Origin: a virus
Strand: one strand, 5' to 3'
Length of the DNA stretch: 64,000 bases
Virus record (IMG/VR): IMGVR_UViG_3300005573_001035
Location: 32,001 to 96,000 of that record
Both the position numbers and the translations under genes were made by a program. Below are positions 25,032 through 59,126 of the stretch, one piece after another. The notes under the pieces were generated by a model. That model did not search any database. It was not told the origin of the DNA and worked only from the letters and a program-made list of their open reading frames with translations. Numbering within the stretch: position 1 is the stretch's first letter; the number at the start of each line of letters is the position of its first letter.

Positions 25032-25568
25032 TCAGAATGAATCTTCTAGTCTGAGTTTAGAAATAACTTGAAGTACGGTCTCTGGGTCTGGAGAGGAGTT
25101 AGGATCATAACTACATGATTCCCAGATCCCAAATTGATCTGGTCTCAAGTACTTCCTCGATTTAAGAACGTTAAAATTATGAGCATAACCATAGATATTG
25201 GGGTCTGACCTTGTGAAAATTACAATCCCCGGTTTCGACTCCCTAAAGTAACTATTGCATAGGTGGGGTAAGAAATTGTCTACCGATATCCACAAATCGC
25301 AACTTTTAATTAACTCAGCAACTTCTCGAAAGGAAAGAGAAAACTCAGTTCGATCTACTCCAGGAAGAATCTTTTCTCCATCTACACCTATTTGTATAAT
25401 CTCAGAGTCAGGGAAAGCTTCTTTGATCATTCTTAAAAGTCTTTCCCAATGAGCATAGTGTTTCGCATTTTCTCTATTTGGATCATCAGTTCGAAGCTTC
25501 CTACTAAAAGGACTAATAACAATACGCATTGCTCCGCTAAATCCCCTCCTCTCTCTTGTTTCTTTCAT
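25032..25568 (-). CDS. GT9 (heptosyltransferase-like) C-terminal Rossmann half
   Basis: IVISP...AKHY..W, IIQIG, SFREVAELIKSCDLWISVDNFLPHL and PGIVIF. Confidence 0.75.
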   Translation of the reverse strand: MKETRERRGFSGAMRIVISPFSRKLRTDDPNRENAKHYAHWERLLRMIKEAFPDSEIIQIGVDGEKILPGVDRTEFSLSFREVAELIKSCDLWISVDNFLPHLCNSYFRESKPGIVIFTRSDPNIYGYAHNFNVLKSRKYLRPDQFGIWESCSYDPNSSPDPETVLQVISKLRLEDSF

Positions 25569-31518: not shown

Positions 31519-31540
31519 TTTTGTAAGGCACCCCCTCTTC

Positions 31541-32185
31541 TCAAAGACTTAGCTTTCTACAAACATGAGTATCTTCAAAAATCAAGACCAATTGGAGAGC
31601 TAAGTCTGGATCTGGTTGTGAATCTAAATCAATGGGCTCTGATGTCCAAACATCAAACTGAAATTTTCTTGCTTTCCCCAAGTACAAGTTTAAATTCTGA
31701 GGGTGACCAAATAAGGACGGTTTGGATTTTGTAAAGATTACCACTCCTGGTTTTCCTACTTCGTTGGCAAGATGTTGAAAAAAGTTATCGACACTAATCC
31801 AATAATGGCACTTAGCAATGTAGGACTTAAGTTCAGAAAGCGAAAGGTCATAATATATATTATCAATCAAGTCCGGACATAGAATTGGTTCTCCACTTAG
31901 AGAAAACTGGATAAATTTTCTTTTTCTTCCCCCACTTTCTTTTAGTTTCTCCAAGAATGGAATCCAATATAAATAGTTTTTTGCACATGTAAGGACATAT
32001 GGGGGACTACTATTTAGTAAGAAATCATTTCGTTGGGTTATTAGTTTATAATCTGGTTTGATTATGCTTCGACTATAAGGACTAATTAGAACTGTGATGT
32101 AATCTCCATCCTTTTCCAGCATTGGCAAAGTCTCCATTATTGATTCGTTCAGTTCTATCTTCTTCCTTCTTGCATAAAGATTCAT
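31541..32185 (-). CDS. GT9-like C-terminal half (second copy)
   Basis: VLISP..AKNY..W and WISVDNFFQHLA..KPGVVIF; paralog of 25032-25568. The true start may be an internal Met. Confidence 0.72.
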   Translation of the reverse strand: MNLYARRKKIELNESIMETLPMLEKDGDYITVLISPYSRSIIKPDYKLITQRNDFLLNSSPPYVLTCAKNYLYWIPFLEKLKESGGRKRKFIQFSLSGEPILCPDLIDNIYYDLSLSELKSYIAKCHYWISVDNFFQHLANEVGKPGVVIFTKSKPSLFGHPQNLNLYLGKARKFQFDVWTSEPIDLDSQPDPDLALQLVLIFEDTHVCRKLSL

Positions 32186-33911
32186 TGCTGGTGGTGGCAG
32201 TGGAAGGTATCATACTAGTATTCGAAAAATTAGAAGGTACTTGTTGTGGTTGAGAGCAGTACATAGCCCTAAAAGAATCAGAAAAAGGTCTATCATGAGG
32301 CCAGTTTACAGACCAACAAAACGCATATGGATTATCTCCACTAGGATACATTCTAGATAGTTCCTTTGAAGAAACGAAAAATATATCTCGACCCAAGTAC
32401 TGACCACAAGTTAGATCATTTTCATTAGTGAGCAGATCAGAGAAAACTTCTGGGAATGTTGGAGAGATAATTATTGTTCTGTCTGGATTGGCCGCAAGGA
32501 TATCTCCCAACGCACTCTTGAAAAGAATGTTGTCTCCTACCCCTCCAGTAGCCAGGCAGATTCTAGGAGGAAGAATCTTCACGCCAAATCTCTCATCAAT
32601 GATGGAAAGAAGAGTTACCATTTGCTCTTGTAACTGGTCATTAGAAATACCTCGCATTCCTCCCATCGGATACGCGAAGTTAGTTACCCTCGCCCGAGTA
32701 TCCACATGTAAAGATAATCCAGATAGAAACAAAGAATTCGTAAATAGAACATGAAACCACGTTAAGAAATCTGGAGAAAATCTTGAATCGTAACAAGAAA
32801 ACTCTTTTACATAACCTATGTCAGGTTTCCTACATACGTATGAACTCACCAAGTACTCATTCCCAGTTAAAAGATAAGGATTAGGAATAAAGCGCTCACC
32901 AAATTGCACACTAGGAAAGATAGAAAAAGTCTTAAGAATGTTTCTAGAAATAAACTCATAGATCAATCCATCACGAGGAAGAAGAATACTTGGAGAAACT
33001 GCACCCAAAGAAGAGTCTTCTTGAAAGTGCTCTAATAAGAAAGCCAAAGCATCCGGGGCCACGATATGATCATCAGATAAGAACCAACATAAATCTTCCA
33101 CCAAATCCAAAGCTTGGATAATAGAATCAAATTTACTTCCGCCTTTCTTTAATGGATGACCCACTAGAATTTCACATCCTTTTGAAGAAGCAAGGGAGAA
33201 GATGCCACTAAAATCAGCAATAGAAGGCAAATCTAAAGGTGACTCACTAGAGTCGATTATCACAATTCTATTAGGTACCCTCAGTTGGTTCACAAGGGAA
33301 ATCAGAACCATGCTTAAGCAGGAGTATCGATCTTTTGTAGGAATAATACATGTGACATGCTCTCGGTTCTCTTCTAGTTGAGGCATTAGAGATTCCTCTT
33401 TCTTCAAGCGTAGGTACTCAATGCAAATAACTTGTTGTAAATCATTCGTTTCTTCCCATGGAAAATCTCGAATATTGCCTTTCGAGTTAATAAATGTTTT
33501 CTTCGCTCTGATTCCAGGTAAGGGTATAGCAATAGGTTCTTTGATATCTGAACTAAATGGAGCTACAAAAAAGAACTTGTAGAATCCAAATTCAGTTTCT
33601 AATCTCAGGTAGCTTTTTGCTATGGTGGCAACCTCGTCAATGCTACTACATAGAAACAAAGCAATCTTCTTCTTGCCCGCACCATTACCTTTAGTAGGAA
33701 TTAGTAATCTGGAAACCTTTACAATTCTCGAACTCAAGAAATCTCCCACGCTTAGCTGAGAAAACTTCTTAGCTACCCCCAACAGAAACTCACTACAAAA
33801 ATCTGGGACGATAATTTCTAGTAAGAATTCTGGATTCTTGGCCAATGATTTTGTTAGAAGAATTCTAGAATAAACTGCTTGGATCTGAGAGTTCGTTATA
33901 CTTTCTGGCAT
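32082..33911 (-). CDS. GT-A-like protein with a C-terminal GT9 N-half
   Basis: HVTCIIPTKDRY..LSDD parallels the third GT domain of 25565-28942; ends with ATGGVGDNILF. Confidence 0.75.
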   Translation of the reverse strand: MPESITNSQIQAVYSRILLTKSLAKNPEFLLEIIVPDFCSEFLLGVAKKFSQLSVGDFLSSRIVKVSRLLIPTKGNGAGKKKIALFLCSSIDEVATIAKSYLRLETEFGFYKFFFVAPFSSDIKEPIAIPLPGIRAKKTFINSKGNIRDFPWEETNDLQQVICIEYLRLKKEESLMPQLEENREHVTCIIPTKDRYSCLSMVLISLVNQLRVPNRIVIIDSSESPLDLPSIADFSGIFSLASSKGCEILVGHPLKKGGSKFDSIIQALDLVEDLCWFLSDDHIVAPDALAFLLEHFQEDSSLGAVSPSILLPRDGLIYEFISRNILKTFSIFPSVQFGERFIPNPYLLTGNEYLVSSYVCRKPDIGYVKEFSCYDSRFSPDFLTWFHVLFTNSLFLSGLSLHVDTRARVTNFAYPMGGMRGISNDQLQEQMVTLLSIIDERFGVKILPPRICLATGGVGDNILFKSALGDILAANPDRTIIISPTFPEVFSDLLTNENDLTCGQYLGRDIFFVSSKELSRMYPSGDNPYAFCWSVNWPHDRPFSDSFRAMYCSQPQQVPSNFSNTSMIPSTATTSNESLCKKEEDRTERINNGDFANAGKGWRLHHSSN

Positions 33912-36067: not shown

Positions 36068-37615
36068 CTACTCTGAGCAACCAGCATAGTTCGATTGCCT
36101 TATCAAACCATCAACCTTAGATCTAACATTTATCCTGCTTCCCAGCCCATCGCAAGAAGCAATACTAGAATGAAACAACAACCACTTATTTCCAAATGTC
36201 ACACACCCACCAAAACAAGACGAGAATACAAGTTTCGATGGAGGATAAGCATGGACATATACAGTCCCACTTCTTGAATCTACAAGAAACCAAGAATATG
36301 TAGCTCCAGATGCAAAAAGTTGAGGAATCTGTGTAGTAGAATCTCTAACTGAACGAGATGAGATACTCGCATTTCTATAGAGCGGAACAGAAAATATTAG
36401 AATACCACTAATATACCAATCAACGTAAGCTCCAAAACCACTCAGATTTCCTGGGTAGCCATCCCAGAAAGCAAATGGCGCGCCACTAGAATAAACGCTA
36501 TTTAACCACGATGTAAGAGGATCAGCACTAACCTGTACTGCCCAATGGCTACCATAAAGATACAAGCCTCTGCTGTAATAATTGTACAAACCTATGCCTC
36601 CAGAAATGGAAGTCCAACTAGATCCATCATAGCATGTTATAGGAACGTATCCGCTCCCACTTATAATTGAGGTCGCCATCAGATAATCATTTACAACATT
36701 AAGTCGGTTAAAAATAGCGCTAGAGTCACCAACTCCCGCCATAGATTTAGAAACAAAAGAAAAAGAAGTACCATCAAAAACCACAATTTTCGAAGACGTA
36801 TTATCCGATGCCGTTACCATGTTATGGGTTGCCATATAGAGCTTATCTTTATAGACTCGCATAGAACGAAAGTACAGGTCGTCACTACTCAGACCAATAT
36901 CAGAATGCGTATAGATCCTGGAAACCTCATTCGTATCAGGAGAAAAAACTACTAGTTTAGACTTTCTCGAATTGTTGCATTGAACTGAGCAGTACAATTC
37001 GTCTCTATAAACCTCCATCGCCCATATACCCGTGTAGAACTCACCTTGGACCAAATCAGAAGAAGGCATTGAGAGAGAAGACCAGGAATCTTGTCTATAA
37101 TCATAGACAAGAATCTTCGAGTAATCATCATATTCAGTGCTAGGCATCGCAGGTTGAGTAACACCAGTTCTAGGATAACTAGCACTAAATCCCATTGATA
37201 TGTAGACCCTTTCTCCCCAAGCAACTACGCAGGTAAAAGTTGAAGCAAACCCAGTCTTAGCACTAGGAATATTTTCTAGAGTCCCAGTAAGTCCAGGCAG
37301 AGTTCGAAAAAAGCCAGGATAGAGAGTATTCCTGGGTCCTCCACAAGTAGAGCATACAAGATCCATTAAAGAATAAACTTTCCCGCTTTTTGAACCCGAA
37401 GTAAAAGAAAAGTATACGTTTCTTGATTCCTCTAGAACTAAGGCACTAGATACATTTGGTAACAAACCACTAAGCGGAACTGGACTGGTCCCACTAGAAA
37501 AATATACACTCCCCGATTGAAAAGAAAGAACAGGAGTTCCAGATACATAGCTTAAACTTAGAACAGAATTATTCTCAATTGTTTTTTGTCTTCCAAACTT
37601 ATCTATTACTAGCAT
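36068..37615 (-). CDS. Beta-propeller-like virion protein
   Basis: Repeats xxYxDxLY...KIxVxDGxxF; paralog of the two upstream genes. Confidence 0.6.
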   Translation of the reverse strand: MLVIDKFGRQKTIENNSVLSLSYVSGTPVLSFQSGSVYFSSGTSPVPLSGLLPNVSSALVLEESRNVYFSFTSGSKSGKVYSLMDLVCSTCGGPRNTLYPGFFRTLPGLTGTLENIPSAKTGFASTFTCVVAWGERVYISMGFSASYPRTGVTQPAMPSTEYDDYSKILVYDYRQDSWSSLSMPSSDLVQGEFYTGIWAMEVYRDELYCSVQCNNSRKSKLVVFSPDTNEVSRIYTHSDIGLSSDDLYFRSMRVYKDKLYMATHNMVTASDNTSSKIVVFDGTSFSFVSKSMAGVGDSSAIFNRLNVVNDYLMATSIISGSGYVPITCYDGSSWTSISGGIGLYNYYSRGLYLYGSHWAVQVSADPLTSWLNSVYSSGAPFAFWDGYPGNLSGFGAYVDWYISGILIFSVPLYRNASISSRSVRDSTTQIPQLFASGATYSWFLVDSRSGTVYVHAYPPSKLVFSSCFGGCVTFGNKWLLFHSSIASCDGLGSRINVRSKVDGLIRQSNYAGCSE

Positions 37616-37641
37616 GTTCTTTTCTCGCCTGAACCAAGTTT

Positions 37642-39030
37642 TTACCAGTTCGTTCCCTTACATATAACTTTCGGTCCTAGATTATACATATCGCTAGAGA
37701 CCCAAGCATTGTAAGTAAATATATACAATGACCCATTAAAGACTTTCATGGAATGAATTGATTCACCACTGTTATAACGAATAAACCATTGATAGTTTGG
37801 CATGGTTGAACCAAGATTAGCTTGAAACGGACGACAATCTATTTGAGTATAACATGCAAAACCGACTCCTGTGGTCTGCTTCTGTCCCCCAGCACACAAA
37901 GCCCCATTAAAGTAAGCAAGTGACCAGATATAAACTGGAGGAGTTGATGAACCCCGAGTTATCTCCCTCCACTTAGTGCCATCATAGACAAGAATCTTAG
38001 TACCTTGGTAATCGTAGAGAGAGGTATTCGTACTATACACGCTAATATATAGATAGCTTCCAGTACTCAAAAAAGCCGGAAACAAGGTATGCCCAGCTAC
38101 GCAGTTTATCTGAGATTTTAGTATCGTAGACCAGGTAGTTCCATCATAAACTAGAAGCTTAGCACCATTGATATCGGTAGCAGCAGTTGTATTATAAGTT
38201 CCCATGTAAGCTTTTCCATTGAACTCAGCTAACCCGTTAAAAGAAGTATCCGCATTAACACACCCTAGATTAGATTTTGGGATAAGAACAAAACTGGTCC
38301 CATCAAAAAGTATAATCTTGGCCGCCGTTAGATCGGTAGCAGCAGTCGAATTGCTAGTTGCTAAGAAAAGTTTATTTTGGTAGATTCCCAGGGGCATAAT
38401 TCTGGTATCATTTGCGTTTAGTCCAATGTCACTTTTCGTATAGACTTGGAAATTAGTCCCATCGAACGCTATAAGGCAAGTGGCAGTCCTATCAGTATTA
38501 GTGCTAGAATTTTGCATCTCAAAGTACAATCGGTTCTTATAAACACAAAATTGCCTACTACCACTATGATCTGCAGAAGGTAATCCCATAGCCTGCTTAG
38601 TGTAAGTTGAAAAGGAGGTTCCATCGTATACAAATAACTTAGCCCCGCTAGAGGTATTAGAAACCGTTGAATTTAGACTTGCAAAATAGAGCTTACCTTG
38701 AAATACCTCAGCCCCAGCAAACCCAGTATCATTGGCGTGGGCACCCATTATGGCTTTCGTAAACAACCGGTACGAATCTCCTTTAGGATAGATTAGATCA
38801 ATTAAGTCACTAATTTTGAATGATACTCGGTTGTTTTGAATTCGAATATCTCCATCAATAATATAAGAACTATCTGGATCATAGTTCTTTGTAGAAACTA
38901 GCTTCTTGTTTAAGTCCATATCTCCTAGTACTATGTAATGTTTAGTTCTGGCAGATGAGTCACTATCAAGAAACCAATATAGGTCATTGCTTGTTACTTT
39001 CTTTTCACCTTTATTTGTAATGACTTTCAT
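37642..39030 (-). CDS. Beta-propeller-like virion protein
   Basis: About 55-aa repeats (FxGKLYF...AKLxVYDGTxF..KxxxG). Confidence 0.65.
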   Translation of the reverse strand: MKVITNKGEKKVTSNDLYWFLDSDSSARTKHYIVLGDMDLNKKLVSTKNYDPDSSYIIDGDIRIQNNRVSFKISDLIDLIYPKGDSYRLFTKAIMGAHANDTGFAGAEVFQGKLYFASLNSTVSNTSSGAKLFVYDGTSFSTYTKQAMGLPSADHSGSRQFCVYKNRLYFEMQNSSTNTDRTATCLIAFDGTNFQVYTKSDIGLNANDTRIMPLGIYQNKLFLATSNSTAATDLTAAKIILFDGTSFVLIPKSNLGCVNADTSFNGLAEFNGKAYMGTYNTTAATDINGAKLLVYDGTTWSTILKSQINCVAGHTLFPAFLSTGSYLYISVYSTNTSLYDYQGTKILVYDGTKWREITRGSSTPPVYIWSLAYFNGALCAGGQKQTTGVGFACYTQIDCRPFQANLGSTMPNYQWFIRYNSGESIHSMKVFNGSLYIFTYNAWVSSDMYNLGPKVICKGTNW

Positions 39031-39060
39031 AAATCTCCTATACTCCTCCTCTCCCTCTTC

Positions 39061-40443
39061 TTAGTACCATACTCTTCCAGGAGGTCTAATAACTAAGATC
39101 TTCGCAGCAGAAGAATCCATATTTGATGATGGGTTGCTTGTCATAATGTACAAATCGTAGTTAAAACTAGTAGGAAACAAACCAATATCTCCAGAAACCA
39201 AAGGTCCTGGCAAGTTTGTCTTCGGAAAAAACGTTGGAGAGTACCCAAGTCTTTGAACTGAAATTTGAGACCCACTTAGATCCATCCTTTGGATGCTAGA
39301 TAGCTCGTTCCCAATAATCAAAGCATCATCCCAAATCGTTGTTTGGATACTCCTAGTACTACCGCTAATAACTGGATTGGTCTCAGCATATGAATTTAGT
39401 AGATATATTTGGGGTCGGAACCACAAACTTATAGAATGCGCACCAGAATAACGAGTCATTATAAATCCATAGTCAGCAACCCATCTTGAACCAGAATTAA
39501 ACTCCCTATAAGTTTCCGGCATTCTATAACCACTCCAGGTTATACCATCGAACGTAACATAGTGATAATAGTCAGAAGTCCCAGAACAAACTGAACCTAC
39601 GAAGGCCGCCCCATATGATGGAACAAAGAATATGGGAACAAACTCATAAACGTAAGCGCCACTAAATAGACTAGTCTTAGGAATACCAGAACATCCAGTC
39701 CCACTAAAGATATAGATTTTTGCCACGTTAGTTGCGTGCGTAGAATAAGATCCAAAGATTATTCTATTGTCGCCAAACTTGATACCATTAGCAAGGATTC
39801 TTTCGTTAGCCGTTATACCTAGGTTACCCTTAGTGAGATAGGTCCAAGTTGTACCATCAAAACAAAGAATTTTAGTTGCTGTCGCATCTGTAGCGACCGT
39901 TGCATTATCAGAGACAAAATATAACTTGCCACTTATATCCCCAAGAAACTTAACGCTGTCCGAAGCCCCAATATTTGTTTGGGATCTCGTATAGTACTGA
40001 AATTGGCTTCCATCAAAAACATATAACTTACGTCCATTAGCATCTGTACTTGCGGACGAGTTGTCTGTTATAAAATACAACTTGTTATCATAAACTACCA
40101 AAGGACGAAACCCAGTATCAGCACTTACGCATCCAGGAATATCTGCCTTGGTAATTACCTGGGGAGGAGATCCTTTTCGAGTTAAGAATTCATAGATGGC
40201 CGATAAACTTCCTCTCGTAAATTTAGCCTCGTTTACAAGGTCTCTAACAACGATATCGCCAGACACGATTGTCATTCGACAAGTAGGGTCCAAGTCTCCA
40301 ACATTACTAGACCCAACTAAGATTTTCGTATAAGGATTGACTAAACCAATAGTTGTTTTCCCATCAGAGCTTGCTTGGTCTGGACCCCCCTTCCAGTCAC
40401 ATGCTTTGGTTTTTTCTCTTCCGTTCTTATCGATAATCTTCAT
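39061..40443 (-). CDS. Beta-propeller-like virion protein
   Basis: Repeats YDNKLYF..KLYVFDG and GKLYF..KILCFDG; N-terminus MKIIDKNG is shared with its paralogs. Confidence 0.65.
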   Translation of the reverse strand: MKIIDKNGREKTKACDWKGGPDQASSDGKTTIGLVNPYTKILVGSSNVGDLDPTCRMTIVSGDIVVRDLVNEAKFTRGSLSAIYEFLTRKGSPPQVITKADIPGCVSADTGFRPLVVYDNKLYFITDNSSASTDANGRKLYVFDGSQFQYYTRSQTNIGASDSVKFLGDISGKLYFVSDNATVATDATATKILCFDGTTWTYLTKGNLGITANERILANGIKFGDNRIIFGSYSTHATNVAKIYIFSGTGCSGIPKTSLFSGAYVYEFVPIFFVPSYGAAFVGSVCSGTSDYYHYVTFDGITWSGYRMPETYREFNSGSRWVADYGFIMTRYSGAHSISLWFRPQIYLLNSYAETNPVISGSTRSIQTTIWDDALIIGNELSSIQRMDLSGSQISVQRLGYSPTFFPKTNLPGPLVSGDIGLFPTSFNYDLYIMTSNPSSNMDSSAAKILVIRPPGRVWY

Positions 40444-44460: not shown

Positions 44461-44988
44461 CTACTTTACTATCCCAAAAACTACATGTAACCATCCGTCA
44501 TATGGAATCTTATGAAAGAAACATTCTTCAATGAATTTCTGGATTCTGTCTTTTGGTTCTTGCTCGTTGCTATTTGTCGTAGGAATCATAGAATTCATTA
44601 GCAAGAATCCTACTAGACCACCCGTTCTATCTTTACCTCCAGCGCAATGGATCCAAACTTTTTTCTTTGAGCAGATACTCGATTGAGCCACAGAAACAAA
44701 ATGACGAAATCTTTCTAAATCTTCTTCTTTCATAATACCAGTCGAAGAGAAATCATAGCACAAGTGTAAAACTGGCTTGGTTCGAAAAAAGTTAATCTCA
44801 GCCGCCTCAGGACCTCTTCTTTGATCTGGTCGAATGTTCATTGCTAAGACCACATCTGGTTTCATTAACCAGTACATAAGCCTAAGTCTAATGGGACCAA
44901 ATTGTCCACTTCGATATAACTGATCAGATAGAACTACGCCAAAGTTTTTCCATAATCTAGCAAGCAGCCATGAAAAGAATTGAGACAT
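44461..44988 (-). CDS. Protein tyrosine / dual-specificity phosphatase
   Basis: LYRSGQ and the CX5R loop HCAGGKDRTG. Confidence 0.88.
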   Translation of the reverse strand: MSQFFSWLLARLWKNFGVVLSDQLYRSGQFGPIRLRLMYWLMKPDVVLAMNIRPDQRRGPEAAEINFFRTKPVLHLCYDFSSTGIMKEEDLERFRHFVSVAQSSICSKKKVWIHCAGGKDRTGGLVGFLLMNSMIPTTNSNEQEPKDRIQKFIEECFFHKIPYDGWLHVVFGIVK

Positions 44989-48438: not shown

Positions 48439-49243
48439 CTTTCTTTCCTACCTCCTAGATCCAAGTATATCTCGTGGTGGTTTCTATACATCTTTCCAAG
48501 AAATCGGCTTAGAGATTCCTATGCATTTTTCAGAAGATCTCCCCCTTGCCATTGAACAAATTGTCTAAAGCTAGAAACGAGAATCAATTTCTCTGTAATA
48601 AGAAGAATCTCGTCTGTCTAATCGACATATATAAACTAGTCCAGCCTCCAACAAAGCTGGATTCATTATACGATGTTTAAGAATAAGACAAAAAAATCAT
48701 CAAAATCTTTCATAAAACCACAGTTTTCTTAGTTGTATATCTAAGAAAGCTAACTTTGAGTAAGAACTAATAGGAGTAACCAGGTAGGGAGTTTTCTCAA
48801 CAGATAGTTCTTGGATGCTTCTTACCTTAAAGAATGATAGTTTCTTAAGAGTGTCGCTTTCAATCCAAGAAATAGGCTGGTCTTCAGAGTTTACTCGTAT
48901 TTTGTTCAAGAATCTAAGGACCAAGTAATCTAATAGGTCTGATCTTTTGGTCTCAAACTTTTCCCTACAAAGTAACGAATCGAAGATTCATTCACAATAT
49001 AACAATCTATAGAAAGTAAAGAATCTGAGTAATAAACTCACAATGTACCACGTCTTTGTATTCTCACCGATTAGAATTTGTTGCCAAAGATCATTAATTT
49101 CAAACCAATCAGAATATAACTCGTTTTGAATGGTGGATGGTAGAAAACTATCTCTTATATACTCAGTAATGTAGTACTACCAACCTGGAAAGGTTCAAAC
49201 ATTATTCTTGGCTCTTTCTTTTTTATGATACTAGCAAAACTAG

Positions 49244-50077
49244 TTAAGCAGCTCCAGTTTCTGGATCTATGGACGTAAACAGAATGTAAGGAATAACACA
49301 TCCTCCCTGGTCAGTTACTATTTGCGTATTTAGAATTGAAGATGGAAGGTTGTACGTAATCAGACCACCCCGACCTCCAACAAACGGAGCTGGAAACCGA
49401 GTGCCAAGAATTCCATCGGCTATTAAACCGCTGAGACTATAAGTCGAGGCAGTTGCTCCAGATCCCACAACATATCCTTTTACTCTCTGACCTACTATAT
49501 AGATTTCGTATCCACTTGTGGTCCAGGAAGTTCCGAAAACACCAATTAGATATGTACTTCCGCCTACCAAGTTCACATTAAAGCTAGTCTGAAAAAGAAG
49601 CGCGTATCCGGAAATAGACCCCTCACCTGAGAATCCGAACCAACCGTCCGTATAACTAGCGGTTGAAAACGTATTTCCAGTCTTGGTATATATACCAATC
49701 TCAATAGTGTACTCATTACTCCAAGTTGCTGGTGAGGTTTCTAGATTATTTGTAAGCAAGATAGGTAATCTAACCGAGACAGCACTTACATTCCCAGGGA
49801 CATATACTAAAGAAAAGATCGGCACTGCATCATAACATCGGTGCGCTTCCGTTAGTTCTGGGATGGCGTTATTTCCGAGAGTGCAGAACCATCGCATTGA
49901 TGAGAAAACAGTACTTCCGCCTACCAAGTCAACGTAAGATCCACCATTTATAGATTTCTTTAGTTTCAAAGTCGAGCTATCAAGGATAATATCACCCTCA
50001 TTAGAACTAGATACAGAAGGAGATGTACAAGAACGAAGATTTTCCAGTACCTCTGTAAGAGTGCCTCGGAATTCCAT
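49244..50077 (-). CDS. Putative virion protein, paralog of 50082-50876
   Basis: Shared MEFxGT, SSSNE, YVPGN, GTRFPAP.VGGR and PYILFTSIDPETGA. Confidence 0.7.
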   Translation of the reverse strand: MEFRGTLTEVLENLRSCTSPSVSSSNEGDIILDSSTLKLKKSINGGSYVDLVGGSTVFSSMRWFCTLGNNAIPELTEAHRCYDAVPIFSLVYVPGNVSAVSVRLPILLTNNLETSPATWSNEYTIEIGIYTKTGNTFSTASYTDGWFGFSGEGSISGYALLFQTSFNVNLVGGSTYLIGVFGTSWTTSGYEIYIVGQRVKGYVVGSGATASTYSLSGLIADGILGTRFPAPFVGGRGGLITYNLPSSILNTQIVTDQGGCVIPYILFTSIDPETGAA

Positions 50078-50081
50078 TTCT

Positions 50082-50876
50082 TTATAGGGTCGCTCCAGTT
50101 TCTGGATCTATCGATGTAAAGAGAATGTATGGAACAACAAATCCTCCCAGGTCAGATTTTATCTGGGTCGCAGATATGGGTGAAGGCAAAGCGGCGGTTG
50201 TCGTAGAAAACCGACCCCCAACAAGCGGAGCCGGGAACCGAGTACCAGCACCTCCCTCTGTTACTAAGCCTGCTATACTTACAGATGGTCCCGACATCTG
50301 TTTTCCAACTATAAACGCGTTGCCAGAAGTATTTGCCCTAGCAACTAGAACCCCAACTAAGTAATAGCTCCCAGACGCCAGCACCACAGAATTATTTTGT
50401 ATCGCACTAGATGATATATTAACAAAGTAGGCCTTACTATTCAGTAAAGTTGAGGACCCACTAAACGATACTGTTGCCGTCTGAACGAGAGCCCAGGTTG
50501 AGAAACCTCCAGTATATAAACCAAAAGTTGCCGTATATGAGTTTGCTCCACTGGCGGTAAAATAAAAAGCCAATCTAATTAATTTTGCTGTCAGATTTCC
50601 TGGTACATACATAGAACTTAGCACCAGGTACTTATCGGTAGCTTGTGTAATATTAGTTAAACTCACCACAGCTGAGATTCCATCTGTCGCGGTAAACCAT
50701 AACAAACTTAATGGTCTGCACCCTATTTCCGAATACGATCCACCACTAATAGAGGCTTTTAGCTTCATATCATTGGCATCTAAGATAATATTAGCTTCGT
50801 TAGAACTTGATACAGGTGGTGATGATACCGCCTTAAGAGTTAGTTTTATCTTTTTGGTTGTACCCTTAAATTCCAA
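50082..50876 (-). CDS. Putative virion protein, paralog of 49244-50077
   Basis: Same shared motifs; TTG start after AAGGAGG. Confidence 0.7.
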   Translation of the reverse strand: MEFKGTTKKIKLTLKAVSSPPVSSSNEANIILDANDMKLKASISGGSYSEIGCRPLSLLWFTATDGISAVVSLTNITQATDKYLVLSSMYVPGNLTAKLIRLAFYFTASGANSYTATFGLYTGGFSTWALVQTATVSFSGSSTLLNSKAYFVNISSSAIQNNSVVLASGSYYLVGVLVARANTSGNAFIVGKQMSGPSVSIAGLVTEGGAGTRFPAPLVGGRFSTTTAALPSPISATQIKSDLGGFVVPYILFTSIDPETGATL

Positions 50877-50906
50877 CTTACCAGAAAACCTCCTTCGACA
50901 GTTATT

Positions 50907-53900
50907 TTAGACAGCAGCTATAACCACCCTGCCATTAAATCTTGAATCTGGACTAGAACTAACATATATTCTTACATTATTAGAATCAATAATTGTAATC
51001 TGATCTGGAAATACAAGATTTCCAGTAGACGTATCCCACGTGCTAACTAACAGGGCTGAAGAATTAAGATTGTGAGTAAACGTTATGTAATAGTTACCGG
51101 TTCCAGAAGTCCACGATGTCGTATTATTGAACGTAGTTGTGTACCTAGAAAGAGATCCGCTAAAACCCGAGTAACCACTAAAACCACTTACTCCAGAGTA
51201 ACCACTAAAACCAGATTTACCACTAAAACCACTTACTCCAGAGTAACCACTAAAACCACTTACGCCTGAATAGCCCGAGTAGCCACTAAAACCAGATTTA
51301 CCACTAAAACCACTTACTCCATCTAGTCCTTGAGAACCAGAATAACCCGAGTAGCCACTAAAACCAGATTTACCACTAAAACCACTTACTCCATCTAGTC
51401 CTTGAGAACCAGAATAACCCGAGAAACCGCTTACGCCAGAATAGCCACTAAAACCACTTACTCCATCTAGTCCTTGAGAACCAGAATAACCCGAGAAACC
51501 GCTTACGCCAGAATAGCCACTAAAACCACTTACTCCATCTAGTCCTTGAGAACCAGAATACCCACTAAAACCACTTGTTCCCGAATACCCACTAAAACCA
51601 CTTGTTCCTTCGAGACCTTGAGAACCAGAATATCCTGAGAAACCACTTACGCCCGAATACCCACTAAAACCACTTGTTCCTTGAGGACCAGAATACCCCG
51701 AAAAGCCGCTCGTACCAGAATATCCACTATATCCACTCGTACCTGTGGGGCCTTGAGGACCAGAATACCCAGAGAAACCACTTACACCAGAGTAACCCGA
51801 AAAGCCACTTGTTCCAGAATACCCACTAAATCCACTAGTTCCCTCAGGTCCTTGAGACCCAGAATACCCACTAAAACCAGAAACACCTTGTGGTCCAGAA
51901 TACCCTGAAAAGCCACTTACACCAGAATACCCACTAAAACCACTTATTCCTTCCGGACCCTGAAGACCAGAGTATCCAGAGAAACCACTAGTACCACTTA
52001 TTCCAGAATACCCACTAAAACCACTTGTTCCCGAATACCCACTAAAACCACTTGTTCCCGCAGGACCTTGCAACCCAGAATATCCAGAGAAACCACTTTC
52101 GCCCGAATAGCCACTAAACCCAGATGTTCCTTCTGGTCCTTGAGAACCAGAATACCCCGAGAAACCACTTATACCTGAGTAGCCAGAGAAACCAGATTTA
52201 CCACTAACACCACTCGCCCCAGAATACCCCGAGAAACCACTTACACCCGAGTAACCACTAAAACCAGATGTTCCTTCTGGTCCTTGTGAGCCAGAATATC
52301 CCGAGAAACCACTTACACCCGAGTAACCACTAAAACCAGAAGTACCTTGTAGTCCAGAATACCCACTAAATCCACTCGTTCCTATGGGACCTTGTGGGCC
52401 TGAATATCCAGAGAAACCACTTACACCTGAGTAGCCCGAGAAACCACTTGTTCCTGTAGGACCTTGAGGACCCGAGTACCCACTAAAACCACTTTCACCC
52501 GAGTAACCACTAAAACCACTCACACCTGTAGGACCTTGAGGTCCAGAATATCCACTAAATCCACTTACACCAGAGTAACCAGAGAAACCACTTGTTCCTT
52601 CGGGTCCTTGAGGACCAGAATAGCCCGAGAAACCACTAAAACCACTCGTACCTGTTGGGCCTTGAGGTCCAGAATATCCACTAAATCCACTTACACCAGA
52701 GTAACCAGACAAACCACTTGGTCCCGAGTAACCACTAAAACCAGAAATTCCTTCTGGTCCTTGTGGGCCGGAATATCCACTAAAACCAGACCTCCCACTT
52801 ACACCCGAGTAACCCGAAAAGCCACTGGTTCCAGAATACCCACTAAATCCACTCGTTCCTGTAGGGCCTTGAGGACCAGAATACCCAGAGAAACCACTCG
52901 TACCAGAATAGCCACTAAATCCAGACGTTCCTTCTGGGCCTTGAGAACCAGAATACCCAGAGAAACCACTCGTACCAGAATAGCCACTAAATCCAGAAGT
53001 ACCCTGGGGTCCAGAATACCCAGAGAAACCACTTACACCAGAGTAACCCGAAAAGCCACTCGTCCCCTGGGGCCCTGGTTCTCCACTATATCCACTATAT
53101 CCACTCGTTCCAGTGGGACCCTGAGAACCAGAATATCCCGAGAAACCACTAACGCCCGAATAGCCACTAAAACCAGAAGTTCCAGTGGGACCCTGAGAAC
53201 CAGAATATCCCGAGAAACCACTAACGCCCGAATAGCCACTAAAACCAGAAGTTCCAGTGGGACCCTGAGAACCAGAGTAGCCACTAAATCCACTTAGACC
53301 CGAATAGCCACTAAATCCAGAAGTTCCCTGGGGTCCTGGTTCTCCACTATATCCACTATATCCACTCGTTCCAGCGGGGCCTTGAGACCCGGAATACCCA
53401 GAGAAACCACTCGTACCCGAATAGCCACTAAAACCAGAAGTTCCCTGGGGTCCTGGTTCTCCACTATATCCACTAAAACCAGATGTTCCCTCTGGACCCT
53501 GAGAACCAGAGTAGCCACTAAATCCACTTAGACCCGAATAGCCACTAAAACCAGATGTTCCAGTAGAGCCCTGGGGTCCGGAATAACCCGAGAATCCACT
53601 CGTTCCAGAATACCCACTAAAACCAGATGTTCCCTCTGGACCCTGAGAACCAGAATATCCCGAAAAGCCACTCGCGCCCGAATAGCCAGAGAAACCACTT
53701 GGTCCAGAATAGCCACTAAAACCACTTGTTCCCTGAGGTCCTGGTTCTCCACTATATCCACTATATCCACTCGTTCCTTGAGGGCCCTGACAACCAGAAT
53801 ACCCCGAAAAGCCACTCGTGCCCGAATAGCCAGAGAAACCACTTGTACCTGAGTAACCAGAAAAGCCACTTGGGCCAGAATACCCAGAGAAACCACTTAG

Positions 53901-55718
53901 ACCCGAATAACCACTAAAACCAGATGTTCCCTGAGGACCAGTCTCCCCACTGTATCCACTAAAACCAGACGTTCCCGAAACGCCTTGTGGACCAGAATAG
54001 CCAGAGAAACCACTTGTACCTGAGTAACCAGAAAAGCCACTTGGCCCCGAATAACCACTAAATCCGGATGTTCCCTGGGGTCCAGCTTCTCCACTATACC
54101 CACTAAATCCCGAGTAACCACTTAGACCAGACCTTCCACTATAACCACTAAAACCCGAATAGCCACTCGAACCAGGAGCATCCCCACTATAGCCCGAAAA
54201 GCCACTAAATCCCGAGTAACCACTTAGACCTGAGTAGCCACTAAAACCACTAAAACCCGAATAGCCACTGGTTCCCGAAGGCCCAGAAAAACCACTAAAT
54301 CCCGAGTACCCACTTAGACCAGGCCCCCCACTATAACCACTAAAACCCGAGTAGCCACTGGAACCTGAGTAACCAGACAATCCGCTAAATCCTGAGTACC
54401 CACTATAACCACTAGGCCCTGGGGGTCCAGAGGAACCACTATAACCGCTCCTGCCCGACTGGCCACTAGCTCCAGAATAACCGCTAAATCCACTCTTGCC
54501 AGAGAAACCACTCAACCCACTTACACCTGCAGGACCTGGCTGCCCAGACCAACCACTAAAACCTGAGAAACCAGACAAACCAGGTACTCCGGGTAAGCCA
54601 CTCCAACCAGAGTATCCACTCCATCCAGAAAAACCACTTTGTCCACTAAAACCACTAAAACCTGATTGGCCTGGTTCTCCACCACCGCCACTACCGCCAC
54701 TACCTCCTTCTCCCCCACCACCACCGCCGCCACCAGTACCAGCCGAAGAACCAGGGCCACTATACGAAGGAGGAAGATACGAAGGTGGAGGTTGCTTATC
54801 TCCTGCGAAACCTGGAGGAGCAGGCATAGCCTGAGGAACTGAACTAGGGGTTGAAGGCGTGGATGGAGTATGAGTTCTCTCAGAAAAGGATTCCCAGGGA
54901 CAATTTCTATCTCCTATTGGATTAGCTCTTTCTGCATATTTGGCTAGTCCTGTTTGATCACATCTCTTACGACCATCAGTGTTTATGTCTTTGTCAGCTC
55001 GAAGATTAAACTCATCTTTGGTCCATATTCGAATCTCACCATCAGCAATAATATGAATCTTCTTTCCAACTTTCAGAAATAAGTTTCCTTCTGTTTCAAG
55101 GTGAACATCGTCTTTAAATTTCGCATGGAATTGTCTCTTAGTAATATCAACCCGGAAGAAATCTCCAAGATACGTTCTAAATAGAAATTGTTCCTGTTCT
55201 TCTCTCTCATCTAAAACAAGGACGGTTTGATTATCATCAACTTTACAGATAGATGCTATGTCACCAGCAGGCGGGTTAGTCAGGAGGCGCTTTTTCCCTG
55301 TAATTTCCCAGCGCTCATCTTGAGGGTCGTCAGATATGACAATCGTTCTGCCTTCTGGAGATTTGAAGAGAACCCACTTATCTTCATACTTTCCGACTTG
55401 GCACTCAGGTAAGACTTTCGAAGATTCAATTTCCAGGGATGCAAAATAGTAGGGTCTGTTTGCATTTCCCTGCTCAAAAAAGACCCAAACCCAAGACCCT
55501 TTTCTAGGAACTAAGCAAGCACCATAGTACCAATTCTCAGGGTTCGCTTCTAAGTTTCTTCCACCCAGATACGTATTAGCTGGACGGGCCCAGATTGCCT
55601 TTTCTTTATCTAGCTCAGGCATCAAAGCTGGAATCCAGACCTTGACCCTGCCAAATTGCTCTGGGTCTCTATTATCTATGACTTCTGCTCTGAAGAAGCC
55701 ATTCAGAAGTTGCTCCAT
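50907..55718 (-). CDS. gp5/VgrG-like baseplate spike fused to a long G-(F/Y)-S collagen-like shaft and a small tip domain
   Basis: OB-fold signature RAEVIDNRDPEQFGRVKVWIP..WARP..VPRKGSWVWVFFEQGNANRPYY, then a beta-helix-like segment, a Pro/Gly linker, about 1,170 aa of triplets and a C-terminal ITFTHNLNS domain. Confidence 0.85.
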   Translation of the reverse strand: MEQLLNGFFRAEVIDNRDPEQFGRVKVWIPALMPELDKEKAIWARPANTYLGGRNLEANPENWYYGACLVPRKGSWVWVFFEQGNANRPYYFASLEIESSKVLPECQVGKYEDKWVLFKSPEGRTIVISDDPQDERWEITGKKRLLTNPPAGDIASICKVDDNQTVLVLDEREEQEQFLFRTYLGDFFRVDITKRQFHAKFKDDVHLETEGNLFLKVGKKIHIIADGEIRIWTKDEFNLRADKDINTDGRKRCDQTGLAKYAERANPIGDRNCPWESFSERTHTPSTPSTPSSVPQAMPAPPGFAGDKQPPPSYLPPSYSGPGSSAGTGGGGGGGGEGGSGGSGGGGEPGQSGFSGFSGQSGFSGWSGYSGWSGLPGVPGLSGFSGFSGWSGQPGPAGVSGLSGFSGKSGFSGYSGASGQSGRSGYSGSSGPPGPSGYSGYSGFSGLSGYSGSSGYSGFSGYSGGPGLSGYSGFSGFSGPSGTSGYSGFSGFSGYSGLSGYSGFSGFSGYSGDAPGSSGYSGFSGYSGRSGLSGYSGFSGYSGEAGPQGTSGFSGYSGPSGFSGYSGTSGFSGYSGPQGVSGTSGFSGYSGETGPQGTSGFSGYSGLSGFSGYSGPSGFSGYSGTSGFSGYSGTSGFSGYSGCQGPQGTSGYSGYSGEPGPQGTSGFSGYSGPSGFSGYSGASGFSGYSGSQGPEGTSGFSGYSGTSGFSGYSGPQGSTGTSGFSGYSGLSGFSGYSGSQGPEGTSGFSGYSGEPGPQGTSGFSGYSGTSGFSGYSGSQGPAGTSGYSGYSGEPGPQGTSGFSGYSGLSGFSGYSGSQGPTGTSGFSGYSGVSGFSGYSGSQGPTGTSGFSGYSGVSGFSGYSGSQGPTGTSGYSGYSGEPGPQGTSGFSGYSGVSGFSGYSGPQGTSGFSGYSGTSGFSGYSGSQGPEGTSGFSGYSGTSGFSGYSGPQGPTGTSGFSGYSGTSGFSGYSGVSGRSGFSGYSGPQGPEGISGFSGYSGPSGLSGYSGVSGFSGYSGPQGPTGTSGFSGFSGYSGPQGPEGTSGFSGYSGVSGFSGYSGPQGPTGVSGFSGYSGESGFSGYSGPQGPTGTSGFSGYSGVSGFSGYSGPQGPIGTSGFSGYSGLQGTSGFSGYSGVSGFSGYSGSQGPEGTSGFSGYSGVSGFSGYSGASGVSGKSGFSGYSGISGFSGYSGSQGPEGTSGFSGYSGESGFSGYSGLQGPAGTSGFSGYSGTSGFSGYSGISGTSGFSGYSGLQGPEGISGFSGYSGVSGFSGYSGPQGVSGFSGYSGSQGPEGTSGFSGYSGTSGFSGYSGVSGFSGYSGPQGPTGTSGYSGYSGTSGFSGYSGPQGTSGFSGYSGVSGFSGYSGSQGLEGTSGFSGYSGTSGFSGYSGSQGLDGVSGFSGYSGVSGFSGYSGSQGLDGVSGFSGYSGVSGFSGYSGSQGLDGVSGFSGKSGFSGYSGYSGSQGLDGVSGFSGKSGFSGYSGYSGVSGFSGYSGVSGFSGKSGFSGYSGVSGFSGYSGFSGSLSRYTTTFNNTTSWTSGTGNYYITFTHNLNSSALLVSTWDTSTGNLVFPDQITIIDSNNVRIYVSSSPDSRFNGRVVIAAV
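51150..54670 (-). repeat. Coding low-complexity 9-nt-period repeat (SG[FY]/GPQ)
   Basis: Triplet repeat with local exact 63-nt tandem duplications, for example near 51250-51560 and 53110-53275. Confidence 0.9.
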
Positions 55719-55765
55719 TTTCTACCCTATCCACCAGAAAGTTAGTTTCCTTTCCATACCGTTGC

Positions 55766-56689
55766 TTATAATCTCGTTACAATTATCTCGATAGCTTTTG
55801 ATATACGGGTATAAGAATAAGAATGAAACTTCGAGAAAAATGAACCAGCAATGGTTGATCCTTTAAGCTCAGAGCAAATAAAGAATGAGACAAACCTACC
55901 ATAATCTTCCAGCGCAGCCACAAAACTAGATCCAAAACTACGAAATAATACTGACGAAAATACAAAGGGGCTTATACCCGGCATAATAGAAAAGTCAGAT
56001 AGGGCAGCTACAAAACTAGTAATCTTGGAAAAATCATATGATTCTAACCTATCTTTTATTAGATCAGGAGAGAACCCAGACATAGAACTAGCTCTTAGAT
56101 AAAGTCTATCTCCACTGGGGATACTAAAAAACGAACTCAAAACATAACACGCGACCATAAACTTAAGAGAGCCAATAAGATAAGAGTAACTTGTAAGAAG
56201 ACCATATTTCTTACCAAATACTCGAATTAAGATAGCAGATAAGAAATCGCATATAAAAGAGGCATAGTCCTCTGACATTCGGCCTCGTTCTAGACCATGC
56301 ACATGATACAAAATAAACCCGTACAATGCTAGACCATATAAATTTCTGTAATCAACTCGACCTATGTTACTGGCAGAAAAATAAGATATGTTTAAAAAGA
56401 CTTGTTTCTCGGACTTAACATACGCTGCTGGTAAAACATATGAGGGAGCTAAACATATGGTAAATGCTTTTGGATTATTTTGTAAGAATCTAACTAGTGG
56501 CTCCTTACTATAATGGCTAATCGTAGGAAGGCTAGAGCCAATAATAGAAACTAGGTCTTTTTGGGTGGCAATTTGTTGAATTTGACCCAATTCTGACTTC
56601 GTTTTTGCAATATTAGGGGTCTTTTCGAGTAGTTCAAAGTCGTATTTTTTCTCCTTTCCAGATCCAAGAAAAGAAACAATTCTAGCCAT
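55766..56689 (-). CDS. Hypothetical protein
   Basis: 307-aa ORF in the baseplate region; no motif recognised. Confidence 0.7.
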   Translation of the reverse strand: MARIVSFLGSGKEKKYDFELLEKTPNIAKTKSELGQIQQIATQKDLVSIIGSSLPTISHYSKEPLVRFLQNNPKAFTICLAPSYVLPAAYVKSEKQVFLNISYFSASNIGRVDYRNLYGLALYGFILYHVHGLERGRMSEDYASFICDFLSAILIRVFGKKYGLLTSYSYLIGSLKFMVACYVLSSFFSIPSGDRLYLRASSMSGFSPDLIKDRLESYDFSKITSFVAALSDFSIMPGISPFVFSSVLFRSFGSSFVAALEDYGRFVSFFICSELKGSTIAGSFFSKFHSYSYTRISKAIEIIVTRL

Positions 56690-56785
56690 GCTCCAGACTG
56701 CTTGACCTCTCTTTCTTATATATACGCACCTCTGAACCTATGTAAAGCAAAAAAAGAGACAAGACCCTAAGAAAAACTAGTTTCT

Positions 56786-57175
56786 CTATAAGGGAAAAGA
56801 CCTAAGATCAGAAACTGGTTTTGGAAGAAATCTATCTCTTGCAACTTCTAGGATTGCGGCAAAGTCAGGAACTAAAATTGTGGGCATTACGAATTCCTCT
56901 ATGCTGTAAGCCCCATTAACGAAAAGAATAAGAGGCCAAAGAACCACAGTTCCATATTCCTGGTAAGATACATAGTCTGGTCTGTATTTAAGTTTCGGGG
57001 TCATAGGAATCTGTTTCGATCTTTGTAATAAGTAGAATAAGTTCTTCTCAACTGCCCACACCTCAAAAGATGGAAAAATAAATAGTCCATTCTCAGTCTT
57101 ATACTGAGCCCTTAAGTTATCAATATCCGTAGTTAAAGATATGTTAGAATTTGTCTCGGCGTCCAGAGTGTACAT
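56786..57175 (-). CDS. Baseplate wedge protein (T4 gp53/LysM-like)
   Basis: YRPDYVSYQEYGTVVLWPLILFVNG signature; close to the gp5-like gene. Confidence 0.7.
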   Translation of the reverse strand: MYTLDAETNSNISLTTDIDNLRAQYKTENGLFIFPSFEVWAVEKNLFYLLQRSKQIPMTPKLKYRPDYVSYQEYGTVVLWPLILFVNGAYSIEEFVMPTILVPDFAAILEVARDRFLPKPVSDLRSFPL

Positions 57176-57184
57176 TCTTAAGAT

Positions 57185-57935: not shown

Positions 57936-59126
57936 CTAAGATAAACTATTCAGTAACCTCTTTCTAGAGACTCCAATTCTAGAAAATATAGGATTTTTCA
58001 ATTGGCTTGGTTCAACAATATCAGAAGAAAGCTTCATATTCGCAAATAAGACTCGATAAGAAACAGCTGCGCATAGATCTTTAAATGGGTGTATACAAAA
58101 ATAAACAGAGGAGGATACATTGTCAACAACACAGAGGTCAGTCCATCCAGATAACCTAGCTCTAAATCTTAGTTTTCCTTGTGCCAAAAGATCATAGTTC
58201 TGGATTGATTGCCTAGATAAAATCACATGGAGCAATTTAAAGTTTTCCGGCTTGTAATGAACCATAGCTTCCAAACTAGGAGGAGATCCAGATGTAAGAA
58301 CCCTAACTAATTTACTTGTATATACTTTTCTCCAGGTTCTATACAACTTTTTTGTAATTCTTCTGCCCGCCATCACAAATAAATTTAGTAGAGCAGGTCT
58401 GGTTATATCCGAGATTAGAACTTTGCTAATTTTCTCAGCAGGCATCTTAAAGAAAAGACACTTGACACCAAGAATTACGTTCACCGATTCTTCCGAACTG
58501 GCCTTTGACTTCTTAAATTCTTCAGTTGAGCCTGTAAGGGTTTGACCTTTCTCACCAAAATCATACTGAAATTTTTGCGAAGTCACAACATTGTCAACTA
58601 ACTCAGATTTGGTTAGCCGGATAACAATCCATGTTGGATCTGGATATAACTCAGTTACTATAGTGGGTGCACTACGGGGCTCGGCACTAATCGTAGGTGG
58701 GGGCGTGGAACTAGGAACAGGACATGGGCCACCAGCACATGGTCCTCCTCCACCTTTGCCAGCAGTTGGATGGGGCCCTTTGGGGGGCGGGGGCGAATAA
58801 GGTACAGGCAAGTTAGACCCAGATTGCGATTTTTCTACTGATAGTTGCCATGGTATCTTAAAAGTATCGGAGAGAGAAGAACTTGGCTTTAACCCATACC
58901 TCCGAAGAATAGAAGATACTAGTCTCTCAAGGCCAGGTTTATTGATCTTAAATGTTCGTTCCGCCCCTGGTATTTTCATTACACTCCTAGCCCATTCTGG
59001 AAGAAGAGAATTAAGAATTATATCTAGACTATATATAAGAGCTAGACGCTCTATAGATTTTCCGATTACAGCGGCTACGTTATCATCAACATCATCTGAA
59101 ACCAAAACTGGGATTATATAGATCAT
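57936..59126 (-). CDS. Hypothetical protein with an internal Pro/Gly-rich linker
   Basis: 396-aa ORF containing PPPPKGPHPTAGKGGGGPC. Confidence 0.65.
   Translation of the reverse strand: MIYIIPVLVSDDVDDNVAAVIGKSIERLALIYSLDIILNSLLPEWARSVMKIPGAERTFKINKPGLERLVSSILRRYGLKPSSSLSDTFKIPWQLSVEKSQSGSNLPVPYSPPPPKGPHPTAGKGGGGPCAGGPCPVPSSTPPPTISAEPRSAPTIVTELYPDPTWIVIRLTKSELVDNVVTSQKFQYDFGEKGQTLTGSTEEFKKSKASSEESVNVILGVKCLFFKMPAEKISKVLISDITRPALLNLFVMAGRRITKKLYRTWRKVYTSKLVRVLTSGSPPSLEAMVHYKPENFKLLHVILSRQSIQNYDLLAQGKLRFRARLSGWTDLCVVDNVSSSVYFCIHPFKDLCAAVSYRVLFANMKLSSDIVEPSQLKNPIFSRIGVSRKRLLNSLS

Follow-up and report, generated by a model that had tools for sequence, protein, structure and literature searches.

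The locus at positions 50907 to 55718 (minus strand) of a 64,000-nucleotide stretch of the IMG/VR virus record IMGVR_UViG_3300005573_001035 (positions 32,001 to 96,000 of that record; hereafter, the window) raises the question of whether the central spike of a contractile tail can carry a long collagen-like fibre on its tip. The gene is a single ATG-started open reading frame (ORF) of 1,603 codons (4.8 kb; stop codon at 50907-50909), as given by the ORF list and its translation, and four parts can be told apart in its product: a spike module (residues 1-273), a hinge that is rich in Pro/Ser/Thr and includes a poly-Gly run, an array of 398 G-X-Y triplets, and an 80-residue C-terminal knob. A Pfam scan of the whole protein recovered only Phage_base_V (E 4.2e-7, 30.7 bits) and Collagen (E 2.5e-162), and the latter value excludes chance as the source of the array. 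The ORF, the register scan, and the Pfam matches bear out the initial annotation of this DNA, which had claimed a gp5-type N-terminus fused in frame to a collagen-like shaft and a tip domain. On balance, we lean towards reading the product as a central spike from which a collagen-like fibre of ~340 nm extends along the axis and ends in a receptor-binding knob.

The spike body (residues 1-273; 54900..55718, minus strand, as are all features below) combines an oligonucleotide/oligosaccharide-binding (OB) fold with a triple-beta-helix-type segment and is homologous to stand-alone spikes. In a further Pfam scan, Phage_base_V (PF04717) covered residues 10-94 (55437..55691) at E 1.1e-8, its 35.7 bits lying above the cut-off of 23.8. 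The PHROG family phrog_430, 'baseplate hub subunit and tail lysozyme', was matched at 6.2e-10 in its OB part only (profile positions 19-105 of 868). A search of residues 1-300 against 1.84 billion representative proteins gave 838 matches at E≤1e-3, including 111 at E≤1e-30; the best 150 of them yielded the 149 relatives counted below, the remaining ~690 weaker ones being outside these counts. A profile built from 53 sequences (alignment A2) matched solved VgrG spikes from type VI secretion systems (T6SS) at 2.3e-17 (8gra), with the OB domain and the beta-helix matched separately. Positions 188-278 of this profile align with the beta-helix of VgrG 8gra (residues 484-588), and the profile alignment places the beta-helix-type segment of the present protein at approximately residues 175-265 (54924..55196). 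Relatives of the spike also matched DUF2345, and one of them matched Gp5_trimer_C below the cut-off. In a tblastn search against 50,697 phage records, 60 records were found at less than 60% identity, most of them jumbo myophages of Erwinia and Dickeya; the 262-residue homologue of the jumbo myophage Dickeya AD1 belongs to the tail module, where the tail tube and a hub gene labelled 'VgrG' are close by.

The modelled fold is that of a central spike as well. With alignment A2, AlphaFold2 (AF2) gave the spike N-terminus a predicted local distance difference test (pLDDT) value of 91.1 and a predicted template modelling (TM) score of 0.80, and in the monomer the beta-helix-type segment appears as an extended chain with pLDDT ~95. 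Foldseek returned 17 matches in the PDB at E≤0.001, of which the best were all central spikes of phages, pyocin, extracellular contractile injection systems (eCIS), and T6SS. The leading ones were AlgoCIS (7aef), the contractile injection system of Anabaena (7b5h), VgrG (8gra), gp5 of phage P1 (9vzk), PVC, and AFP, accompanied by the spikes of phiKZ (6orj) and R2 pyocin (4s37) and, lower down, by P2 gpV (3qr8) and T4 gp5. The low TM-scores of these matches (0.2-0.4) reflect the comparison of a single chain taken from an intertwined trimer. In BFVD, a library of viral structures, the matches that bear a name are proteins of the gp5, baseplate hub, or central spike kind, and most of them come from myoviruses. 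An N-terminus that fails to model as gp5, which the initial annotation had named as a case against its claim, was therefore not encountered by AF2, Foldseek, or the VgrG profile. Pfam found no lysozyme domain of the T4 gp5 kind between the OB fold and the beta-helix in the whole protein, and Pfam, PHROGs, and profile searches detected no gp27-like or prophage-tail family at the N-terminus but a gp5-type OB fold instead. The spike module belongs to the short OB-plus-needle type and is not T4 gp5 proper.

The point at which the shaft joins the spike could be located from the ends of the relatives. Stand-alone relatives of 280-400 residues (58 of the 149) carry a conserved P-x-G-[DE]-R-[DE] motif at their end, which corresponds to PIGDRN at residues 267-272 of the present protein (54903..54920), and in alignment A2, 44 of the 52 short relatives terminate 0-4 residues after the column of residue 272. 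This clustering indicates that residues 274-1603, approximately 1,330 in number, have been appended to the natural tip of the spike, as the initial annotation had assumed. In solved gp5/VgrG spikes this C-terminal end is the distal tip, facing away from the tail tube, and the extension must therefore point outward along the axis and not into the tube. The family does accept C-terminal cargo, since 57 of the 149 relatives are longer than 400 residues, and these include two with a VgrG3-like C-terminal domain, one with Amidase_3, and four with DUF2345. The four closest long relatives (P0002-P0005; 1,425-1,893 residues) are 42-45% identical over the spike part. Their unrelated extensions of 1,100-1,600 residues are Ser/Asn/Asp-rich and end in a conserved domain of ~350 residues without a Pfam family (…NFGYGSY.NPDD…YYYNPY.EW…), which may be an undescribed spike cargo. 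Searches with the N-terminus also located two viral loci at 35% identity and six metagenome loci, the best of them, L004, at 49%; the L004 contig ends inside the spike domain, and the region 3′ of the spike is not visible in any of these two viral or six metagenome loci. An exact 39-nucleotide pattern from the start of the gene had no match in viral or metagenome contigs.

Beyond the natural end lies a Pro/Ser/Thr-rich linker (residues 274-328; 54735..54899) containing a PPGFAGD motif, followed by a Gly-rich hinge (residues 327-349, GTGGGGGGGGEGGSGGSGGGGEPG; 54672..54740), which from its sequence is a candidate breakaway or processing site. Both elements, a Pro-rich stretch and a poly-Gly hinge between spike and repeat, had been described in the initial annotation and are present. 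A weak similarity to the spike linker (blastp E 0.003) is seen in a Pro-/Gly-rich stretch (…PPPPKGPHPTAGKGGGGPCAGGPCP…) of a 396-residue protein encoded at 57936..59126, for which no family match was obtained.

The collagen-like array comprises 398 triplets and 1,195 residues and is divided by a single one-residue register break into segment 1 (residues 329-514, 62 triplets; 54177..54734) and segment 2 (residues 516-1523, 336 uninterrupted triplets; 51150..54173). The register scan finds only this break, the GDAPG motif at residues 512-516 (54171..54185), in accordance with the one clear interruption reported earlier, and the previous estimates of ~390 triplets and ~1,170 residues were essentially right. 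Among the 398 triplets, 200 have Tyr or Phe at position X and 314 have Ser at position Y, and the array as a whole consists of 34% Gly, 28% Ser, 8.6% Tyr, 8.1% Phe, and 4.9% Pro; collagen-typical GPQGPEG/GPQGPTG units also occur. Segment 2 shows a degenerate periodicity of 72 nucleotides (24 residues). The rise of a collagen triple helix is ~0.286 nm per residue. If triple-helical, the array would therefore measure 1,195 × 0.286 nm = 342 nm, of which the unbroken segment 2 accounts for ~288 nm; the figure of roughly 330 nm proposed before was thus right in order. An unbroken helix of 336 triplets, if it forms, would approximate the length of a fibrillar animal collagen.

Two further collagen-like fibre genes in the window are paralogous to the array. 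P0006 (40853..44350; 1,165 residues) has 349 triplets with 12 GDxPG breaks and matches Pfam Collagen at 2e-139 and the tail fiber family phrog_6320 at 1e-199. P0007 (33965..35992; 675 residues) has 42 triplets with three such breaks, followed by a Gly/Ser-rich C-terminal part of 530 residues, and matches Pfam Collagen at 6.9e-13 and, below threshold, the NCBIfam models of Scl2/SclB and Lcl. Both match tail-fibre PHROGs, and both share the G-[Y/F]-S repeat unit with the spike array; the single break of the latter is of the GDxPG-[ST]SGYSG type found in P0006 and P0007. The linker of the spike protein and the N-terminus of P0006 have a PPGFAG[DE] motif in common (blastp E 1.2e-5, 29% identity over 58 residues of low complexity). 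The common break type and this motif suggest that the shaft derives from a paralogous fibre gene. The part of P0006 that precedes its array is only 44 residues long.

The knob (residues 1524-1603; 50910..51149) is a small all-beta domain presumed to act as a trimerisation and receptor-binding head. A tip domain had been expected and is present, its size being 80 residues and not ~85. It matches phrog_16122 (2.1e-7) and phrog_14293 (1.3e-5) at the C-terminal ends of both profiles and in this respect weakly resembles the C-terminal ends of phage virion proteins (phrog_16122). A tblastn search with the knob found one phage, filed twice, at E 8e-3, and a wide structure search (VIA) gave only generic Ig-like or beta-sandwich matches (Z≤5.5), which are uninformative.

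These parts could be assembled into the following mechanism. Residues 1-273 would form the trimeric needle of OB fold and beta-helix by which a contractile tail is closed at its tip, and the three chains would pass the natural end at PIGDRN and continue through the flexible Pro-rich and poly-Gly hinge into the 398 triplets. Leaving the needle tip in register and near the axis, they could be nucleated by the needle into a triple helix, and they most likely wind into a single collagen-type helix of ~340 nm that is kinked once at the break and capped by the 80-residue beta-sandwich knob. The register of the helix would be set by the spike trimer at one end and probably by the knob at the other; in the available text of PMC4576200, C-terminal parts are described as usually critical for the folding of fibrous and collagenous proteins. 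In its most likely role, the thread would hang from the centre of the baseplate as a single long-range central tail fibre, whose knob would bind the host surface or a surrounding layer before the phage closes in. Upon sheath contraction, the thin (~1.5 nm) thread might be bent out of the way, depart together with the spike, or snap at the poly-Gly hinge.

The reality of the reading frame was assessed in four public sequencing runs (X1-X4) labelled as hot-springs metagenome, in which 0.91, 0.90, 0.19, and 0.05 of the sampled words of the window, respectively, were found. The junction of spike and collagen is covered by a 928-nucleotide contig from X1 (54400-55220) and a 664-nucleotide contig from X2 (54557-55220), which run from the needle through the linker and poly-Gly into the first ~100 residues of the array. 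Over the region compared (54400-56000), they show 0 differences and no indel, joint, or stop, and so the stop or misassembly at the spike-repeat junction that the initial annotation had named as a contrary outcome is not seen in them; X1 and X2 may be the source samples of the window, in which case this agreement means consistency and not independence. X3 covers 29 of 30 bins and has single-nucleotide polymorphisms of its own, with a depth close to nil over the poly-Gly part; for X4 the coverage is 11 of 30 bins, and neither run bridges the junction. Across the four runs, 16 variant sites fall inside the gene and 15 of them are synonymous, as are all four sites, from X3, at the start of the collagen (segment 1). 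The nine-residue peptide GTSGFSGYS occurs in 38 copies encoded by 31 different DNA versions. Synonymous variation and the recurrence of the same repeat peptides in many DNA versions together indicate purifying selection. Words of the array are unique in the window for 77% of 31-mers, 99% of 100-mers, and 100% of 150-mers, and the longest exact repeat within 33001-56000 is 116 nucleotides. The uniqueness at 150 nucleotides makes the array assemblable, its exact length being provisional. The array is accordingly an old, selected, and assemblable coding repeat.

Four alternative explanations have to be weighed against the axial fibre. The one that bears on the data just described is that short-read assembly of repeats has joined separate spike and fibre genes or distorted the length of the array. 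Three paralogous arrays lie within 22 kb and share exact repeats of up to the length given above, nearly a quarter of the 31-mers are not unique, loose ends of other repeat copies touch 54633-54665, and long reads are lacking. However, the junction lies in unique sequence that is bridged by the two identical contigs, every 150-mer of the array is unique, the frame stays open over 4.8 kb, and X1 and X2 hold about nine tenths of the sampled words, which makes an artefact very improbable. A second alternative accepts the fusion as made and supposes that it is cut at the poly-Gly/Pro-rich hinge, so that the mature spike is short and the collagen part is lost, kept on some virions, or used as a separate fibre. 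This would fit the long Gly run directly after the natural end of the spike and the resemblance of the linker's PPGFAG[DE] to the very N-terminus of the free-standing P0006, which gives the impression that a fibre gene was attached in its entirety. It would also fit the case of TP901-1 Tal, for which the accessible text of PMC11409707 describes a Gly-rich motif, NGGGNSGGGD, as a proteolytic processing site giving a mixed virion population. By this analogy the hinge of the present protein might be cleaved, but no protease was identified nearby. The 307-residue protein encoded upstream was considered as a candidate and is unsupported, its Atlas leads being zincin-like but sub-threshold and no HExxH being seen. 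Production of a separate fibre from an internal start at Met296 would likewise have to proceed from a site with no visible Shine-Dalgarno sequence upstream. We regard maturation by hinge cleavage as unlikely, though of the four alternatives it is the one to be taken most seriously.

The other two alternatives concern the place of the protein and the nature of the array. The spike module may not be the sole central spike, the true one being encoded elsewhere and this paralogue anchoring a fibre at another site or serving as an exchangeable spike. The gene does stand among fibre-like and glycosyltransferase genes and not among recognisable baseplate genes, and the search was confined to the 64-kb window. 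Nevertheless, the solved structures that match best are central spikes on the tail axis, no other Phage_base_V match came up in the scan of window proteins (29 with both Pfam and PHROGs and 22 more with PHROGs only), and the order of the genes for the 129-residue protein, the 307-residue protein, and the spike is kept in contig L004. We consider this paralogue explanation improbable, and we give equally little weight to the idea that the G-[Y/F]-S array forms no triple helix and acts instead as a flexible, sticky low-complexity tether or adhesive mass at the tail tip. The latter idea draws on the Pro-poor composition, rich in Gly, Ser, Tyr, and Phe, and on the hot-spring habitat. It leaves unexplained, however, the Gly period of three that is strict over 336 triplets and needless for disorder, and it has to face the GPQGPEG/GPQGPTG units, the Pfam Collagen score, and the anchoring of the array to an obligate trimer.

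Several observations weigh against the axial collagen-like fibre itself, in addition to the possible origin of the window in X1 and X2. A run of at least six G-X-Y triplets occurs in none of the 153 relatives examined (the 149 together with the four long ones), and the fusion therefore rests on a single assembled metagenome sequence; the exact 1,603-residue protein is absent from a collection of 15 billion proteins. With Pro at only 4.9%, the stability of a triple helix at hot-spring temperature is doubtful without extra stabilisation. A fibre on the needle tip could also hinder puncture. The single-sequence AF2 model of the knob has seven strands and a poor pLDDT of 59, and no informative relatives of the knob were found, with no match among shorter proteins and Atlas leads below 0.9. 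Finally, no recognisable baseplate cluster surrounds the gene, its neighbours being without a family in Pfam, PHROGs, and NCBIfam, and the 64-kb window showed no gene for a sheath, tube, hub, or PAAR protein. For PAAR, there was no match among the 29 window proteins scanned with Pfam, the window having just one more small minus-strand ORF free of overlap, and the blunt needle end to which such a protein would bind is taken up here by the extension.

The surroundings of the gene provide its genomic setting. The window is part of a jumbo phage. Its genes lie almost solely on the minus strand, and they include pieces of a multisubunit RNA polymerase and genes for topoisomerase II, SbcCD, a helicase, and a recombinase resembling UvsX. 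The two genes upstream of the spike, encoding 307 and 129 residues (55766..57175), are syntenic with it in a related contig, since tblastn against L004 recovered the homologue of the 129-residue protein, that of the 307-residue protein, and the spike N-terminus in the same order. The 129-residue protein has a weak match to the baseplate-wedge family phrog_22056 (8.1e-7). Directly downstream of the spike gene are two paralogues of 277 and 264 residues (49244..50876), which are 42% identical, have a conserved end, ...PYILFTSIDPETGA, and match no family; relatives 77-82% identical to them occur on metagenome contigs of up to 19.5 kb, where both paralogues are again found together. They are followed, at 48439..49243, by ~800 bases without an ORF of more than 74 residues on either strand amid otherwise tightly packed minus-strand genes. 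P0006 and P0007 are separated by three paralogues of 515, 462, and 460 residues (36068..40443), whose identity reaches 31-37% in some parts and which have no Pfam, PHROG, or NCBIfam match. A 175-residue protein, encoded between fibre genes as well (44461..44988), gives sub-threshold matches to families of dual-specificity and of tyrosine phosphatases (PTP-SAK at 1.1e-4 and Y_phosphatase3 at 1.9e-4). The window contains no tRNA and no Rfam family, and a promoter and terminator scan of 49000-57500 gave counts no higher than in shuffles.

An island of glycosyltransferase and methyltransferase genes (25565..33911) stands directly beside the collagen-like fibre genes. One of its genes encodes 1,125 residues with three GT2 stretches and a methyltransferase, the C-terminal part of which is shared by a 609-residue protein; another encodes 859 residues with GT2, two methyltransferase domains, and GT17; a GT9-like protein of 214 residues and its 178-residue paralogue are also present. 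The position of the island beside the fibre genes and the predominance of Ser at the Y position raise the possibility that its enzymes glycosylate the fibres, and we can only speculate that O-glycosylation of Y-position Ser by them stabilises the array. A fuller scenario would have a jumbo hot-spring phage with a contractile tail whose needle anchors an axial collagen 'fishing line' of ~0.3 micrometre, kept heat-stable by such O-glycosylation and provided with the poly-Gly as a breakaway joint; taken as a whole, this scenario is tentative and rather doubtful. If true, no central fibre would have been known on a gp5/VgrG-type spike before the glycosylated line, which would also stabilise a collagen free of hydroxyproline (Hyp) in a new manner. 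A connection between glycosyltransferases encoded by phages and collagen-like fibres is thereby opened to testing.

Central spikes have been seen as short rigid needles, to which only enzymes, effectors, or a PAAR cap are added. A 340-nm fibre on a spike, if real, would mean that myophage-type machines, too, can catch a host at long range along their axis, an ability so far known for tails that do not contract (Tal and central fibres), and would pose the mechanical question of how a needle that bears a thread at its tip is fired. The array is also a natural Hyp-free and Pro-poor collagen design from a hot habitat, mounted on a well-behaved trimerising domain, with possible uses in recombinant collagen materials and in the spike-based retargeting of tailocins or eCIS particles. 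In the literature, most subscription journals being outside the search, no description was found of a gp5/VgrG-type spike joined to a collagen-like shaft; the collagen-like shafts of eCIS described in the accessible text of PMC12923769 are peripheral fibres.

Compared with the solved gp5/VgrG central spikes (6orj, 9vzk, 4s37, 3qr8, 8gra, and 7aef/7b5h), the present protein has the same succession of an OB fold and a beta-helix-type needle, whereas in those spikes the chain stops at the tip of the needle or soon beyond it and in this one it continues for ~1,330 residues; T4 gp5 differs further in carrying a lysozyme domain. The 'evolved' spikes with C-terminal cargo, such as VgrG with a VgrG3-like peptidoglycan-hydrolase domain and the relatives P0011, P0016, and P0100, likewise have a module added at the C-terminal tip, but some 'evolved' spikes bear a cell-wall hydrolase as cargo, in place of which a fibrous shaft and a knob are found here. 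The bacterial proteins Scl1/Scl2 and Lcl, to which the shaft may be compared, form G-X-Y triple helices of prokaryotic origin that lack Hyp and bear a globular end for trimerisation; they are, however, cell-anchored adhesins with far shorter arrays and no relation to the spike module. BclA is another bacterial collagen-like surface protein. Collagen-like phage fibres and minor tail proteins (phrog_6320, phrog_5073, and phrog_1806) share the G-X-Y array and the small C-terminal domain, and FibU of Staphylococcus aureus phage 80alpha is predicted to be such a collagen-like fibre in the available text of PMC7048315. These fibres are attached peripherally through their own N-terminal adaptors, whereas the adaptor here is the central spike. 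The Tal proteins of the lactococcal P335 phages C41431 and BK5-T, as presented in the accessible part of PMC9692632, are trimeric central tip proteins with short collagen-like linkers and a C-terminal receptor-binding head. The likeness of siphophage Tal to the present protein, a central tip protein extended along the axis to a head, is a functional resemblance only, given that Tal begins with a gp27-like hub, belongs to a non-contractile tail, and uses its collagen parts as short linkers between globular domains, in contrast to the gp5-like OB/needle start and the 398-triplet shaft described here. The architecture is, in sum, a variation on two known kinds, the spike with C-terminal cargo and the collagen-like phage fibre.

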